Positions 19,875 to 28,411 of a DNA stretch of 64,000 bases are shown piece after piece. Origin of the DNA: Spirochaetota bacterium (lineage in GTDB: Bacteria > Spirochaetota > UBA4802 > UBA5550). The notes beneath the pieces are model-generated. The model searched no databases. It saw only the letters and a program-made list of their open reading frames with translations, and was not told the origin of the DNA. The translations under genes were made by a program, and so were the position numbers. The stretch covers positions 64,001 through 128,000 of the forward strand of contig CAXXHB010000003.1 in NCBI GenBank assembly GCA_963664815.2. The letters run 5' to 3'. Within the stretch, counting starts at the first letter, position 1, and the number at the start of each line of letters is the position of its first letter.

Positions 19875-21722
19875 TTACCTGTTTATTTTTGAAAAATACT
19901 CTTCCATAATAACGGTAAATGCTTTCATTTCTTCCGGGCGTATATCCCCGATATTGGCTATACGGAAAGTATTTGCATCGGAAAGTTTACCCGGATAGAT
20001 AGTAAATGAATGCTCTCTTGCCATGTCATGCAGGTCGTTAAAATTATATTCAGGGTTGTCGGGTTCAACGATTGCCGTGATAAGTTTTGACTGAGCACCC
20101 TCCGGCACAAGCATTTTTAACCCTGTTCTTTTTACAGATTTTACAAGTTCCTCCCAGCAGGCACTGTATCTGGCAAAACGCCCTTCTATAGTCTCTATTT
20201 TTGTTTCTATTATCGCCTGTCGAAGGGAGTACAGGCTCTGTACTGGCGGGGTAAACCGTGTCTGGCTTGTCTTTTTAAAGTGTGAATACTGATCCCACAG
20301 ATTCAGATAAAAGCTGCGCATAGGATACTCTTTTGTCTTTTCAAGTTCGCTTTTACGGCAGAATACAAAAGCAACTCCTGCCATACCCTGGATGTTTTTA
20401 TTTGAGGTGGAGGCCATGAAATCGATACAGTCCCGTTCCATGTCAATTGGTATTGCGGCAAATGCGCTGACAGTGTCAACAATAGTAACAATGCCATGTG
20501 CATGGCAGAATTGTGCAATTTCAGGAACAGGGTTTAAAAGGCCGGTTGTTGTTTCATGGTAAACAATTGCAAGATGAGTGTATTTTCCTTCAATAAGTTT
20601 TGACTTGACCGTATCCACATCAAGGGGGAGGTATCCGCTGCTTTTATAAACATCGAACCTGAGTTTATATACAGAAGCAATCTGGGCAAAACGTGTTCCG
20701 TATGCTCCGTTATCAACAATGAGGAGTTTACCACTATCCGGTATGCAGGAAGAGATCATTACCTCATCGGCGGCTGTTCCTGAGCCTCCGAATAATACGG
20801 TTTCAATTTTATCTCTGTCTCCGACAAATCCTGAAAGCTCCACAGATATCCATTCCATTACTGCTCCGAATTCTTTTTCACGCGGGCAGATGTCTGCACA
20901 TACCTGTGAAAACTTGACGCTGTCAGTTGTTGTTGCAGGTCCGGGATTAAGAAGAACTTCGCGTCTTATCTGCCGAAGCGATTCATTTGTTTTTATGGCA
21001 GGGTAGACTTTCGAAATCGCCATATTGAGATGGTCTTCATCATCTATCTCCCGCCATGCGTAGCTGTCGATTTTATTTATTGCAATCTTTTCACCGTCGC
21101 TTGATGAGGTGCTGCTTATATATGACATTGCGGTTTCATATTCCATCTTCGGCTGGTCGCTCAGATGTTCCGAGCAGTACCGGTTCATTTTATCCAGTGC
21201 CGATTTTTTCAGTTTCGATATGCCGACAAGTTCTCCATATACAGATGTGAGTTCATTGATATTTTTCGAGTTACGCACAAGAAAACCTTCAGTATCAGCC
21301 TGAAGATATACCTCGTCGCCGGAAGAGGTCTTCCCGGAGGCAAGGATGACATTTCTGCGGCTGTCGTTAATAAGAACTGTAAGTCCCTGGCTGTCATAAA
21401 TAAGGTCGGATTCAAGGATAAGTGAGTCGCTCCATACGTGCGGAATACAGCACGCCAGTGTTCCCATACTACCGGTTTCAGCGTAGCGTTCATTCTTTAC
21501 AAGCTTTATGCAGTGGTATTTTTCCGCCAGACGTTCAAACCATTCGCTGCAGTGGCCTGTTCCTATAATTATTTCCTCAATTCCTGATGCGAAGAGTTTT
21601 TTTACGGAACTTTCAATTATCGGCATCCCGTCGATCTTAATAAAACCCTTTGGCATCGATTCTGTGCGGCTTTTCAGTCTTGTGCCGAGACCCCCTGCCA
21701 TAATAACAGCCTGTCGTATCAT
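19875..21722 (-). CDS. phnW: Fusion of PntC/LicC-like phosphonyl cytidylyltransferase and 2-aminoethylphosphonate aminotransferase
   Basis: N-terminal NTP-transferase ([12 protein letters not shown]...[35 protein letters not shown]); C-terminal class V PLP aminotransferase ([44 protein letters not shown]). Confidence 0.93.
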
Positions 21723-22825
21723 TTACTCCCTCCGATGAGTGAAGAAAATCTTTTAGCAACTTCCCGGGGTTTGACTTTAGGACGCCCCAGGGTTTCCGGT
21801 GCACCCTGTGCAATAGGGACATATATGAATGTCAATCCCCCCTTTTTTTGTGCGGATACAACGGCTGAGCCAAGCGCTTCCGCATTCTGAACCGATATAA
21901 CATCTGGATACCCGCACGCACGGGCAAGAGAGGGGTAGTCAACGCTTCCCGAAACTGTAAACTGGCCGCCGGTAGATTCATGGGCATTATTATCAAATAA
22001 TATATGAAGTATATTTGAAGGCTTATATGCCGCGTTTACCGCAAGTGAACCCATTCTCATAAGCATTGCGCCGTCACCGTCAAGAACAATAATCTTTTTG
22101 TCCGGTCTGGAGAGTGAAATACCCAGAGCAAACGAGGATGCGCATCCCAGCGAGCCGACCATGTAAAAATTATTATCTGTGTCGCCATGTTCATACAGCT
22201 CTCTTCCGGTAAATCCGGTTGTCGCAATAAAAAGCGAATCCGGATCCGATGCGGAACATACCGTATCAAGCATACAGCCTCTTTTCGCCAGTCCCTCTTT
22301 AACTTCAGGTTTTTTATCGCTGTTAAGTGAAATTTTTGAGAATGTTTCTTTGCGCACAATAAAAAAGTATGATTCGCCTGAATTTATTATACTGTCCGCC
22401 TCCGCCAGCTGTTCCGCAGCAGTCAGGGGATTATCTGAAAGAACTGCATTTTTAATCTTCATTGTGTCAAGCATGCTCCCCGTTATAACACCCATCAGGT
22501 CATGCTGCGGTTCATCGGAAACTCCCGGTTCACCTCTGAGGGATACGAAGCCGAGAACCGGAATTTTAAAAATCTGGTTAAGGGATGTGAGAGGGGAGAC
22601 TGCATTTCCGAGACCTGAGTTCTGCATAAGAACAACGGTCTTTCTGCCGGTGATCTGGGCCCCTGCGCATATTGCCACGGCATCCCCCTCGTTGGCGGCC
22701 ATGACGTATTCACAGCAGTTAATGGCATAATTTATAAGATCCTTCAGAAATGAACAGGGAACACCGCTGTAAAAATCGTATCCAAGCGATTTAAGGTCAT
22801 CTCCGAATTTATGTGTATCAATCAT
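21719..22825 (-). CDS. aepY: Phosphonopyruvate decarboxylase
   Basis: [50 protein letters not shown], and the TPP motif DGDGA...[11 protein letters not shown]. Confidence 0.96.
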
Positions 22826-22839
22826 TTTATTCTCCTCTG

Positions 22840-26604: not shown

Positions 26605-26617
26605 TAAGGCAGCAGTT

Positions 26618-28411
26618 ATGATAAACAGAAATCCGCTTTTCATTAAAATTGATATGAGTATAAAAAGATTTATGCAGAGAGATTTAACAGTTTTTTTCAC
26701 GAACTCATTATTCTTTACAGGCCTGCTGTTAATCTATTCACTTGGATGTTCTTATCTTCTTCCACAGGGGGTAAATGCACATTTTGCCTCAATTTTATTG
26801 ATAGTTCTTTCCGGGATTTTTCTGCTTTTTGTGCTGATTTTTTCAGGCTGGCGTTTTCTTACACGGAAAATGTCTTATGCATATAATAAAAAATACGAGC
26901 CGTTTAAGACAGCAGACTTTATTTTCATATTGATCCCGATGACACCGGTTATGCAGTATATTCTGTCAAACCAGGATTCTCTGACTATGTTCAGCTCGTC
27001 TTTAATCTTTATAATCTTTGGAGTAACTATTGCCATATTCGGTATTGTTATTCCGGTACTGCTGTCACGTTTTGCTTTTAAAAAGGTGTTAATAACAGCA
27101 TCTGTCAGTTTTCTTTACATGATAATGAGTATGGCGTCTCTTGCGGCAGCCAATGGGTGGAGCGGGAAGGGAATAATCAGTATTCAAATTGTGATCCTCC
27201 TGATCGTTATTCTTGTTTTATCGTTACTGAGATTTATTCCTGAAAAAATTATTATAATTGCCATTGTTGTCTTTTTTACTGTAAACACAGTTACCGGAGT
27301 TTTATTTAAAAAATCAGAAGGTGGAGAGTCTGAAACGGTTAAGAATTTTTCTGTAATGTCTGCTCTTGAAGGGAAGAGGGTTAAAAAGCATAATGATGTT
27401 CTGCTGATAGTATATGAATCTTATCCCAATTATGAAACCTTAAAGCATTACGGTTTTGAAAACAGTGAACAGCTTGCATTTCTGGAATCAAATGGTTTCC
27501 GTATTTATAATGGAGTATATTCTCTCGGGATACCCACAGAACAGTCCATGTCGAGAGTTTTTAATGTCGAGCTGGATCTGAAAGAACATAAAAAGTACCT
27601 GGCAGGGGGTGGGGCTGTTCACAGTATTCTCAGAGGACAGGGATATAAAACATATGGTGTTTTTGACAACAGCTGGAATTTAAGAGGGCTCCCCATTGAC
27701 CAGATTAAATATGATAACTGTTTTCCAAGACCTTCCGGCGTTATGGATAGTAAGGTGCTTGTGAATGCAATATTTACAGGAGAGTTCAGCGATGCCGTGA
27801 GTTTTGAAGGGGTGGATTACAACTCATATATAGATCACAAGCATAAAGTAATTAAAAAGGAATATCCCTGCCCGGTTTTTATGTACTCACACAGCAGTTT
27901 TCCCGGTCATGGTCCCAGCGGTATGGGGATGAGACTTGAAGAGAGGGAGGGGAAGATAGCCGGACATCTTGAAGGCATCCAAAAAGCGAACGTTGAGATG
28001 AAACAGGATGTGGATGTAATAATAAAAAGTAATCCCGACGCTATTGTTGTTATAGCAGGGGATCATGGACCGTTTCTGACAAAAACAGGTTATGGTTTAA
28101 GCAAGGGACGGGGAGGTTTCAGCGCAGAGGATATCGACAGATATGATATCCAGGACAGGTTCGGGTCATTCCTTGCAATAAGATGGCCTGAAAAAAAATA
28201 TGCGGAAAAGTATGATATTAAGGTCTTTCAGGATATATTTCCGGCAATTTTTTCATACCTCTATGATGATGATTCGATATTTAATAAAATCAGGATTGAG
28301 AGAGTAACGAGAGAAATCAAGCGGATACTGGGTGTTTATGTAAAAGACGGGGTCATATATGGAGGTAAAGACAACGGGCAGAAACTCTTTTTAATGGAAC
28401 AGAAAAAATAA
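26618..28411 (+). CDS. Membrane-anchored alkaline-phosphatase-superfamily (LtaS/EptA-like) transferase/hydrolase
   Basis: About 7 N-terminal TM helices, then LLIVYESY (metal Glu), GIPTEQSM (Thr nucleophile position), SHSSFPGH and IAGDHG metal ligands. Confidence 0.8.
   Translation: MINRNPLFIKIDMSIKRFMQRDLTVFFTNSLFFTGLLLIYSLGCSYLLPQGVNAHFASILLIVLSGIFLLFVLIFSGWRFLTRKMSYAYNKKYEPFKTADFIFILIPMTPVMQYILSNQDSLTMFSSSLIFIIFGVTIAIFGIVIPVLLSRFAFKKVLITASVSFLYMIMSMASLAAANGWSGKGIISIQIVILLIVILVLSLLRFIPEKIIIIAIVVFFTVNTVTGVLFKKSEGGESETVKNFSVMSALEGKRVKKHNDVLLIVYESYPNYETLKHYGFENSEQLAFLESNGFRIYNGVYSLGIPTEQSMSRVFNVELDLKEHKKYLAGGGAVHSILRGQGYKTYGVFDNSWNLRGLPIDQIKYDNCFPRPSGVMDSKVLVNAIFTGEFSDAVSFEGVDYNSYIDHKHKVIKKEYPCPVFMYSHSSFPGHGPSGMGMRLEEREGKIAGHLEGIQKANVEMKQDVDVIIKSNPDAIVVIAGDHGPFLTKTGYGLSKGRGGFSAEDIDRYDIQDRFGSFLAIRWPEKKYAEKYDIKVFQDIFPAIFSYLYDDDSIFNKIRIERVTREIKRILGVYVKDGVIYGGKDNGQKLFLMEQKK

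Follow-up and report, generated by a model that had tools for sequence, protein, structure and literature searches.

The locus considered here lies at positions 19875-28411 of a 64,000-nucleotide stretch of DNA from a Spirochaetota bacterium (GenBank assembly GCA_963664815.2, contig CAXXHB010000003.1, positions 64,001 to 128,000 of the forward strand), the whole of which is hereafter called the window. Three minus-strand genes, predicted to direct the synthesis of an activated phosphonate, cytidine monophosphate (CMP)-linked 2-aminoethylphosphonate (AEP), are arranged divergently from three plus-strand genes, which encode a YidC/Oxa1-family paralogue, a TagF-like phosphotransferase and a membrane protein of the alkaline phosphatase (AP) superfamily. 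An earlier note on this DNA had described aepX, aepY and a PntC-aminotransferase fusion facing such a trio across a 470-bp gap, and both the open reading frames (ORFs) and their domain calls agree with that description. The six ORFs, confirmed at the coordinates which the note had given, and the region between the two halves are as follows.

19875-21722, minus strand: PntC-AEPT, a fusion of AEP cytidylyltransferase and AEP transaminase (AEPT), 615 amino acids (aa)
21719-22825, minus strand: phosphonopyruvate decarboxylase (Ppd), 368 aa
22840-24138, minus strand: phosphoenolpyruvate (PEP) mutase (PepM) with an N-terminal cytidylyltransferase-like (CT) domain, 432 aa
24139-24608: divergent intergenic region, 470 bp, AT-rich
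24609-25295, plus strand: YidC/Oxa1-family paralogue, core only, 228 aa, TTG start
25312-26604, plus strand: TagF-like (Glyphos_transf) phosphotransferase, 430 aa
26618-28411, plus strand: polytopic AP-superfamily protein of the LtaS/EptA/PbgA type, 597 aa

Within the trio, the YidC-like and TagF-like genes are separated by 16 bp and the TagF-like and AP genes by 13 bp, whilst on the opposite strand the Ppd ORF shares 4 bp with the downstream PntC-AEPT ORF.

The minus-strand proteins each passed the cut-off of a curated family. PepM scored 412.5 bits against TIGR02320 (cut-off 319.55), with a CTP_transf_like match at 5.5e-10, and its EDKVGLKKNS at residue 259 fits the EDKXXXXXNS motif of PEP mutases (PMC6697681). 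Ppd scored 403.1 bits against TIGR03297 (cut-off 312.5), with matches to TPP_enzyme_C and TPP_enzyme_N at 1.2e-17 and 1.5e-5, respectively. PntC-AEPT joins a LicC-like nucleotidyltransferase domain (NTP_transf_3, residues 5-108) to a class-V AEP transaminase, reached 369.4 bits against TIGR03301 (cut-off 360.8), and aligned over its full length (residues 1-613) to Tde1415 of Treponema denticola (PDB 6pd1/6pd2; E 2.4e-250), an enzyme reported to form CMP-AEP and to have AEP transaminase activity (PMC6697681). Given these cut-offs and the match to Tde1415, the biosynthesis half is of a known kind, a pathway that would lead from PEP through phosphonopyruvate, phosphonoacetaldehyde and AEP, and whose product is, by orthology to characterised enzymes, CMP-AEP.

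The Pnt (phosphonyl tailoring) pathway of T. denticola (Rice et al. 2019, PMC6697681) has the same gene set, in which a CT-like domain is fused to Ppm and PntC to AEPT, with Ppd as the third member. The abstract of that paper terms the later tailoring ‘enigmatic’, and its text treats what follows CMP-AEP as open, with LicD-like phosphotransferases or glycosyltransferases mentioned in gene neighbourhoods. The window differs in that its neighbouring genes are the TagF-like/YidC-like/AP trio, and no LicD was found in the whole genome (96% complete). The locus also encodes no cytidine diphosphate (CDP)-alcohol phosphatidyltransferase, the five CDP-OH_P_transf matches in the genome all lying outside the window, so that the earlier note was correct in stating that neither type of enzyme is present in the locus.

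The CT domain fused to PepM reads HPGI in place of the HxGH signature, the second His of which is important in cytidylyltransferases. Among 16 CT-PepM proteins aligned (the N-terminal 140 aa of the window protein and the PepM ORFs of loci L002-L110, from the surveys described below), 15 have H-P/H-G-I/L at this position; the exception, L008, in which an Fe-alcohol dehydrogenase takes the place of AEPT, reads HSGH. In AEP clusters this domain may be inactive or repurposed, and the missing second His speaks against a local source of CDP-glycerol. A different form of PepM is encoded at L053:2352-3983, where a 543-aa protein with the EDK motif at residue 116 has no CT domain and bears a long C-terminal extension, its neighbours being a TagF-like gene and a YidC fusion of 1007 aa.

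The TagF-like protein matched Pfam PF04464 (Glyphos_transf) with 40.0 bits (cut-off 22.1; 3.1e-10) over residues 182-349 only. When a profile of 35 of its relatives (A2) was searched against the PDB, the matches were the TagF-like capsule polymerase Cps3D (1.3e-5), TagF (2.3e-4) and TarL (6.8e-4), with PtW paired with PTW, rPHP with RMHY/RGH and sDfsg with TDYSS. The window protein has these motifs as PTW, RPHP and SDFSG, and residues P247, W249, H279 and D324 are invariant in A2. It therefore resembles TagF, TarL and the TagF-like capsule polymerases in passing the PF04464 cut-off, in its C-terminal Rossmann half and in the PTW, H-P and (T/S)D(Y/F)S motifs. It differs from TagF and TarL in two respects: its N-terminus forms a hydrophobic two-helix membrane hairpin containing YLDPGSGS, in which Y-x-D-P-G is invariant, and its neighbours make CMP-AEP, or elsewhere probably CMP-2-hydroxyethylphosphonate (CMP-HEP) or CDP-choline, rather than CDP-glycerol. 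By gene context, then, the donor would be CMP-AEP here and CDP-choline or CMP-HEP at other loci, and we propose that the protein is a cytoplasmic loader using CMP-AEP, probably one that makes a single transfer and is not a polymerase.

The hairpin is also found away from the TagF-like protein, as a separate small ORF adjoining distant homologues of the AP protein at five loci, and between the TagF-like and AP parts of a triple fusion described below. From this placement, it may dock the loader to the membrane domain of the AP enzyme.

The YidC-like protein passed both 60KD_IMP (77.8 bits; cut-off 35) and TIGR03592 (85.4 bits; cut-off 84.3), and has the five-helix core of the YidC/Oxa1 insertases. 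As a housekeeping YidC is encoded on another contig (contig 2; a 552-aa frame scoring 199.8 bits), the window protein is a true paralogue. It differs from the insertases in being a second copy, in the usual position of its relatives elsewhere as the N-terminal domain of an AP-type enzyme, and in a groove position of the first core helix, which we take to correspond to E. coli YidC R366. The housekeeping YidC has K at this position, whereas the window protein has N and the 16 aligned paralogues have N, S or T without exception; on this alignment, the paralogue no longer carries the positive charge found in the groove of insertases. We propose that it serves as a translocator of a head-group lipid, or as a dedicated insertase.

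Assignment of the 597-aa protein depended on its relatives and on structure prediction, as it differs from LtaS, EptA and PbgA in having no sequence-level match to any solved chain and no Pfam match; a profile of its family (A1, the Sulf-like family) returned only chance matches against PDB sequences (E 0.3 or worse). Pfam Sulfatase (PF00884) was nevertheless matched by 19 of 31 aligned homologues (best E 1.9e-8), and in the ESM Atlas only ‘hypothetical protein’ clusters were retrieved, a minority of whose members carry Sulfatase. An AlphaFold2 model based on the family alignment (pLDDT 85.5; a single-sequence model, at 37.5, was discarded in its favour) has an alpha/beta domain following N-terminal hydrophobic helices, of which there are approximately seven between residues 24 and 229. 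Foldseek ranked PbgA (6xlp, 5.2e-7), LtaS (4uor, 2e-6) and EptA (5fgn, 7e-6) highest, followed by YejM, EptC and MCR-1, all above the true sulfatases, with target-normalised TM-scores of 0.34-0.56.

E267, T307, D482 and H483 form the active-site tetrad, which we equate with the Thr and metal-site residues of LtaS and EptA. In an alignment of 59 AP domains, drawn from six family members, 50 YidC fusions and three TagF fusions, the first position is D or E in 58 and the second is T or S in all 59, as are the D and the H at the remaining two. No C/S-x-P/A-x-R formylglycine motif of sulfatases was found in the 597-aa protein. On fold and active site, ‘LtaS/EptA-like’ is thus the right description at that level, the protein not being a sequence-level member of any curated family, and the ‘LtaS-like’ call of the earlier note stands by this indirect route. 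The N-terminal transmembrane domain, the predicted extracytoplasmic catalytic domain and the acidic-Thr-Asp-His site are shared with LtaS, EptA/MCR-1, EptC and PbgA/YejM; characterised AP-type relatives carry their catalytic domains outside the cytoplasm, and we propose that this protein is an extracytoplasmic head-group transferase. Unlike LtaS, EptA and PbgA, it also comes with its own TagF-like enzyme and YidC paralogue, as neighbours or as fusion partners, and this association implies that its donor is purpose-made and is not a bulk phospholipid.

More distant AP homologues, of approximately 33% identity, occur at loci within L006-L037 (for example L019:8056-11701, L020:8163-11710 and L021:3773-7368) with neither TagF-like nor YidC-like neighbours, in Chloroflexota, Krumholzibacteriota, Acidobacteriota and other hosts. 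A protein of approximately 460 aa with weak methyltransferase matches adjoins them in 10 of 30 loci, and the small ORFs at the five loci mentioned above (90-148 aa) have similarity to the TagF-like family in its N-terminal Y-x-D-P-G hairpin alone. Such neighbours appear to represent another type of loader, acting with a related transferase.

Two collections were utilized to examine the association of the three plus-strand genes: 39 loci from contigs representing one genome per species, each with a relative of the 597-aa protein, and 80 metagenome loci holding TagF-like relatives, 43 of which are at least 8 kb in length. All three proteins were found together in six of the 39 loci. Single ORFs joining the TagF-like and Sulf-like parts (1027-1042 aa) occur at L005 and L016 in Erysipelothrix and at L008 in a Clostridiales metagenome-assembled genome (MAG), and 36 of the 40 longer TagF-like homologues match the hidden Markov models of both families. 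Fusions of the YidC-like and Sulf-like parts are represented by proteins P0078-P0080, L036 (873 aa, Bacteroidales MAG) and L069; in half of the metagenome loci (40 of 80), a protein of 800 aa or more begins with the YidC-like part, and all eight such fusions tested carry 60KD_IMP together with a weak Sulfatase and/or Phosphodiest match. P0238 joins the YidC-like and TagF-like parts, and P0239 (1482 aa, Bifidobacteriaceae MAG) is a triple fusion in the order YidC, TagF-like, hairpin motif, Sulfatase.

A YidC-like ORF was present in 53 of the 80 metagenome loci (35 of the 43 that are at least 8 kb), and a YidC-like gene lay beside the TagF-like gene in each of the 16 Spirochaetota genomes examined in which pepM gave no match. 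Since the three proteins are found elsewhere fused in each possible pair and, once, all together, the trio is very likely a single functional unit, and the neighbourhood survey, in which 60KD_IMP, Glyphos_transf and Sulfatase-like domains co-occur and fuse, with pepM in part of the loci only, sustains the view of the earlier note that the three proteins act together. The carriers, of separate or fused forms, include Spirochaetota, Erysipelothrix and Clostridiales (Bacillota), Bacteroidales and Bifidobacteriaceae.

There were several instances of loci in which the AP component is multiplied. A single TagF-like gene precedes two to three YidC-AP fusions at 11 loci (L055, L056, L058, L059, L061, L063, L064, L068, L096, L098 and L115), and two tandem AP genes are present at L042 and L043. 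Such loci, with one loader and several AP paralogues, are compatible with a shared donor, and suggest that it serves several acceptors. In other instances, two S-adenosylmethionine-dependent methyltransferase genes flank a TagF-like gene and a YidC-AP fusion (L036:6878-12585), and a homologous methyltransferase precedes the module at L069:880-1542; the head group may be methylated at these loci, for example from an ethanolamine type to a choline type.

The relationship of the trio to phosphonate synthesis was followed in a tree of 87 TagF-like domains, in which the clade of the window has 100% SH-aLRT support. In this clade, pepM adjoins the trio in all five informative loci (the window, L002, L003, L041 and L043), the contig of a sixth member, L042, ending before the position of pepM; at L003 and L043 the two gene sets are co-directional, unlike the divergent order of the window. 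Phosphonate genes were detected in 17 of the 80 metagenome loci, or 14 of the 43 of at least 8 kb. In the other collection, L008 encodes a triple NTP_transf/CT/PepM fusion with an Fe-alcohol dehydrogenase and Ppd, a gene set that points to 2-hydroxyethylphosphonate (HEP) as the probable cargo.

A sample of 301 genomes of the phylum contained the TagF-like gene in 57 and pepM in 38, the overlap being counted by hand. PepM was encoded in 18 of the 57 genomes with the TagF-like gene versus 20 of the 244 without it, figures which, related genomes not being independent, are descriptive and not statistics; pepM is otherwise reported in only approximately 5% of bacterial genomes (PMC8942020). In 10 of the 18 genomes with both genes, pepM lies within 10 kb. 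The claim that the locus is a complete phosphonate system therefore stood in part: pepM adjacency is a feature of the lineage of the window, and the trio is not phosphonate-specific, since its homologues occur independently of pepM in this sample (39 of 57 genomes have no pepM match). The earlier note had named such independent occurrence as evidence that would refute its proposal, and it is what the sample shows; the effect is to broaden the proposal beyond phosphonate and not to overturn it.

Copies without pepM keep other company. In the 16 pepM-negative genomes, the TagF-like gene was adjoined by a LicC-LicA-like fusion in five, another NTP_transf_3 gene in four and LicD in three, with none of these in four; both Erysipelothrix loci carry a LicC/choline-kinase fusion. 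As these partners are other head-group-activating enzymes, the module appears cargo-agnostic rather than unrelated to phosphonate. At least four changes of cargo label are seen in the 27 labelled rows of the TagF-like tree, in which L008 (phosphonate) is sister to L016/L005 (choline-type) with 99% SH-aLRT, and L110/L084 are sister to L070/L094, also with 99%. The Sulf-like family was tried as a phosphonate marker and rejected: 30 of the 39 loci, mostly Chloroflexota at approximately 33% identity, have no TagF-like, YidC-like or pepM gene detectable by tblastn, and a further three have no match at all.

From these observations we lean towards a reading in which the two divergent halves belong to one surface-decoration pathway, the plus-strand trio being a relay for interchangeable head groups with AEP as its cargo here. 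That the trio consumes the CMP-AEP made at this locus appears probable from gene context. If a head group is produced on the inner side of the membrane and consumed on the outer side, a membrane carrier is required. In the proposed sequence of events, the hairpin-anchored TagF-like enzyme, with its GT-B domain in the cytoplasm because CMP donors must be reached there, would use CMP-AEP to charge a membrane lipid with the phosphonyl head group; diacylglycerol, a glycolipid and polyprenyl phosphate are candidates for that lipid. The YidC paralogue would then carry or equilibrate the head-group lipid to the outer leaflet, a step made plausible by the in vitro scrambling of glycerophospholipids reported for E. 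coli YidC (bioRxiv 10.1101/2023.09.01.555937). Finally, as its fold and active-site residues suggest, the AP enzyme would take the head group on Thr307 and hand it to an extracytoplasmic acceptor.

In this scheme we infer that the loader uses CMP-AEP, that its product is lipid-linked and is flipped, and that an acceptor receives the head group outside; the support for the mechanism comes from orthology, fusions, intact motifs in both enzymes and the lost groove charge. The C-terminus of the YidC core is cytoplasmic, and under both fusion orders (TagF-AP and YidC-AP) the AP enzyme would begin on the cytoplasmic side, so that a logic of loader, translocator and extracytoplasmic transferase fits the fusion orders as well as the conserved catalytic residues. 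In other lineages these three domains, in many cases fused, adjoin LicC-LicA (phosphocholine activation), other nucleotidyltransferases or PepM/Ppd/Fe-alcohol dehydrogenase (probably for HEP). More tentatively, and at rather less than even chances, we suggest that the translocation of head-group lipids became the special task of a recruited YidC paralogue, coupled or fused to a TagF-like synthase and an LtaS/EptA-like transferase, in a relay for AEP, probably HEP, phosphocholine and perhaps others.

Several observations weigh against this reading of the locus. The roles assigned to the trio are predictions from sequence, model and context. The 597-aa protein has no hit in Pfam, Sulfatase PF00884 included, or in NCBIfam, and its approximately seven predicted transmembrane helices compare with five in the transmembrane domain of LtaS and EptA. 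Matches of the loader to solved TagF-type enzymes are weak (E 1e-5 to 7e-4) and confined to its C-terminal half, and the Pfam name of its family is CDP-glycerol glycerophosphotransferase. A YidC domain fused ahead of a polytopic enzyme could simply aid the insertion of that enzyme. With regard to the tie to phosphonate, in the 18 genomes with both genes pepM is 18-40 kb distant in four and on other contigs in four, and the 39 TagF-like genomes with no pepM match mean that adjacency may be one of several associations, the enrichment itself being descriptive for the reason given above. Searches by tblastn detected no donor-activating gene in 41 of the 80 metagenome loci, or 16 when only the 43 with 8 kb or more are counted, nor in four of the 16 genome loci. 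A competing outlet for CMP-AEP could be any of the five CDP-alcohol phosphatidyltransferases encoded outside the window.

Three other explanations were considered. The TagF-like enzyme could decorate a lipid-linked glycan at the cytoplasmic face with no head-group lipid involved, the YidC-like protein being a private insertase and the AP enzyme performing a separate ligation or trimming step. Solved TagF-family enzymes do act on lipid-linked or polymeric glycerol- or ribitol-phosphate acceptors, YidC-family proteins are insertases by definition, and the module at L016 is adjoined by a GT4 glycosyltransferase, LicD and a second LtaS-type sulfatase. However, several loci, L003/L043 and L008 among them, hold only donor-activation genes and the module, and the pairing of one TagF-like gene with multiple YidC-AP fusions at 11 loci, or with tandem AP genes at L042 and L043, better suits a common donor. 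An insertase in cis ahead of its client in most loci would be an unusual domain order, and the groove charge is gone from all 16 paralogues; we regard this explanation as unlikely, though worth keeping in view.

A second explanation treats the adjacency as circumstantial, with the trio using CDP-glycerol or CDP-ethanolamine made elsewhere and CMP-AEP passing into a phosphonolipid via a CDP-alcohol phosphatidyltransferase. It draws on the pepM-less majority of TagF-like genomes, on the Pfam family name, on the five CDP-OH_P_transf genes, and on the GC content of the AEP operon (44.1%), which is above that of the trio (38.7%). It is decidedly improbable in view of the pepM adjacency in all five informative clade loci, divergent and co-directional alike, the absence of any other nucleotidyltransferase or kinase among the ORFs scanned at 15063-34239, and the lack of the second HxGH His from the CT domain in 15 of 16 CT-PepM proteins. 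More doubtful still is the possibility that a phosphonolipid from another route is the donor for an EptA-like AP enzyme, with the TagF-like enzyme building the acceptor, such as a short glycerol-phosphate or head-group primer. EptA/LtaS-type enzymes do draw on bulk membrane lipids as donors, which counts in its favour. So does the label ‘Group 4 phosphonolipids’ given to pepM clusters with multiple sulfatases (PMC8942020). Yet the locus holds no lipid-synthesis gene, and both the company of the TagF-like gene with CMP/CDP-activating genes and the TagF-AP fusion in 36 of 40 long homologues would be left unexplained.

The relay that we favour has its closest analogues in the three-component lipid-carrier systems GtrA/GtrB/GtrC, CsbB-GtcA-YfhO and ArnC-ArnE/F-ArnT, each consisting of a loader, a small flippase and a polytopic transferase. 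By analogy, the trio would share with these a cytoplasmic loader that charges a lipid, a small membrane protein that flips it, and a polytopic extracytoplasmic transferase that decorates a polymer. It differs in its proposed cargo, a phospho- or phosphono-head group from a CMP or CDP donor and not a sugar, and in its components, namely a TagF-like loader rather than a GT-A enzyme, an AP-superfamily Thr enzyme rather than a GT-C enzyme, and a YidC paralogue as the proposed flippase. What would be new is the joining of LtaS/EptA-type head-group transfer to lipid-carrier logic by way of a recruited YidC paralogue, the biosynthesis half being already known.

Literature searches found no paper describing a YidC-like/TagF-like/AP module, and the terms YidC, TagF and Glyphos have no occurrence in the main text of PMC6697681 or PMC8942020, figures and supplements lying outside this check. 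That pepM clusters can hold several sulfatase-family genes has been noted for gene cluster family (GCF) 400 of Selenomonas, with ‘multiple sulfatases’, and the ‘Group 4 phosphonolipids’ are those of Yu et al. 2013, cited in PMC8942020; no mechanism is given there. A review reports attenuation of Erysipelothrix rhusiopathiae through mutation of a ‘tagF homolog’ (PMC7174600), a gene that may be the TagF-Sulf fusion.

With respect to the remainder of the locus, the intergenic region at 24139-24608 has a GC content of 31.5%, versus 39.2% across the window, and is presumed to carry promoters for both directions; a scan for consensus promoters and terminators gave 27 and 8 sites versus 24.7 and 8.1 expected from shuffled sequences, and hence no excess, so that no site is assigned. 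In the family to which the window belongs, the TagF-like gene is encoded in none of 21 other genomes of the phylum sample and pepM in one of them. The patchy distribution of both genes, together with the GC contrast between the AEP operon, the trio and the window, is consistent with horizontal acquisition.

Convergent on the AEP operon, at 17161-19848, are genes encoding an HpnL/LPG_synthase_TM-like membrane protein (331 aa) and a weakly matching PMT_2/GT-C-like protein (555 aa). These were rejected as members of the system, the GT-C gene being kept only in the closest relative, L002; a tie to the decoration system is possible and unsupported. Directly downstream of the trio, the ORF at 28719-29555 combines glutaredoxin and CAP (cysteine-rich secretory protein) domains, an unusual pairing. 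A 309-aa ORF at 15063-15992, with LpoB/CsgG/TolB_N-like matches in its C-terminal part that suggest a periplasmic lipoprotein, has no apparent relation to the system.

For the transfer of AEP from CMP-AEP to surface molecules, the locus and its fused relatives name three candidate proteins and an order of action, and if the proposed relay is true, it would supply the missing step after CMP-AEP in a phosphonyl tailoring pathway. Phosphocholine and further head groups are probably handled by this machine too, which makes it of interest for host mimicry and for the charge of the envelope in Erysipelothrix and in spirochaetes of the mouth and gut. In addition, the locus constitutes a natural test of in vivo lipid translocation by YidC-family proteins, for which the relay, if true, would represent the first physiological role for Oxa1-family lipid translocation in bacteria.

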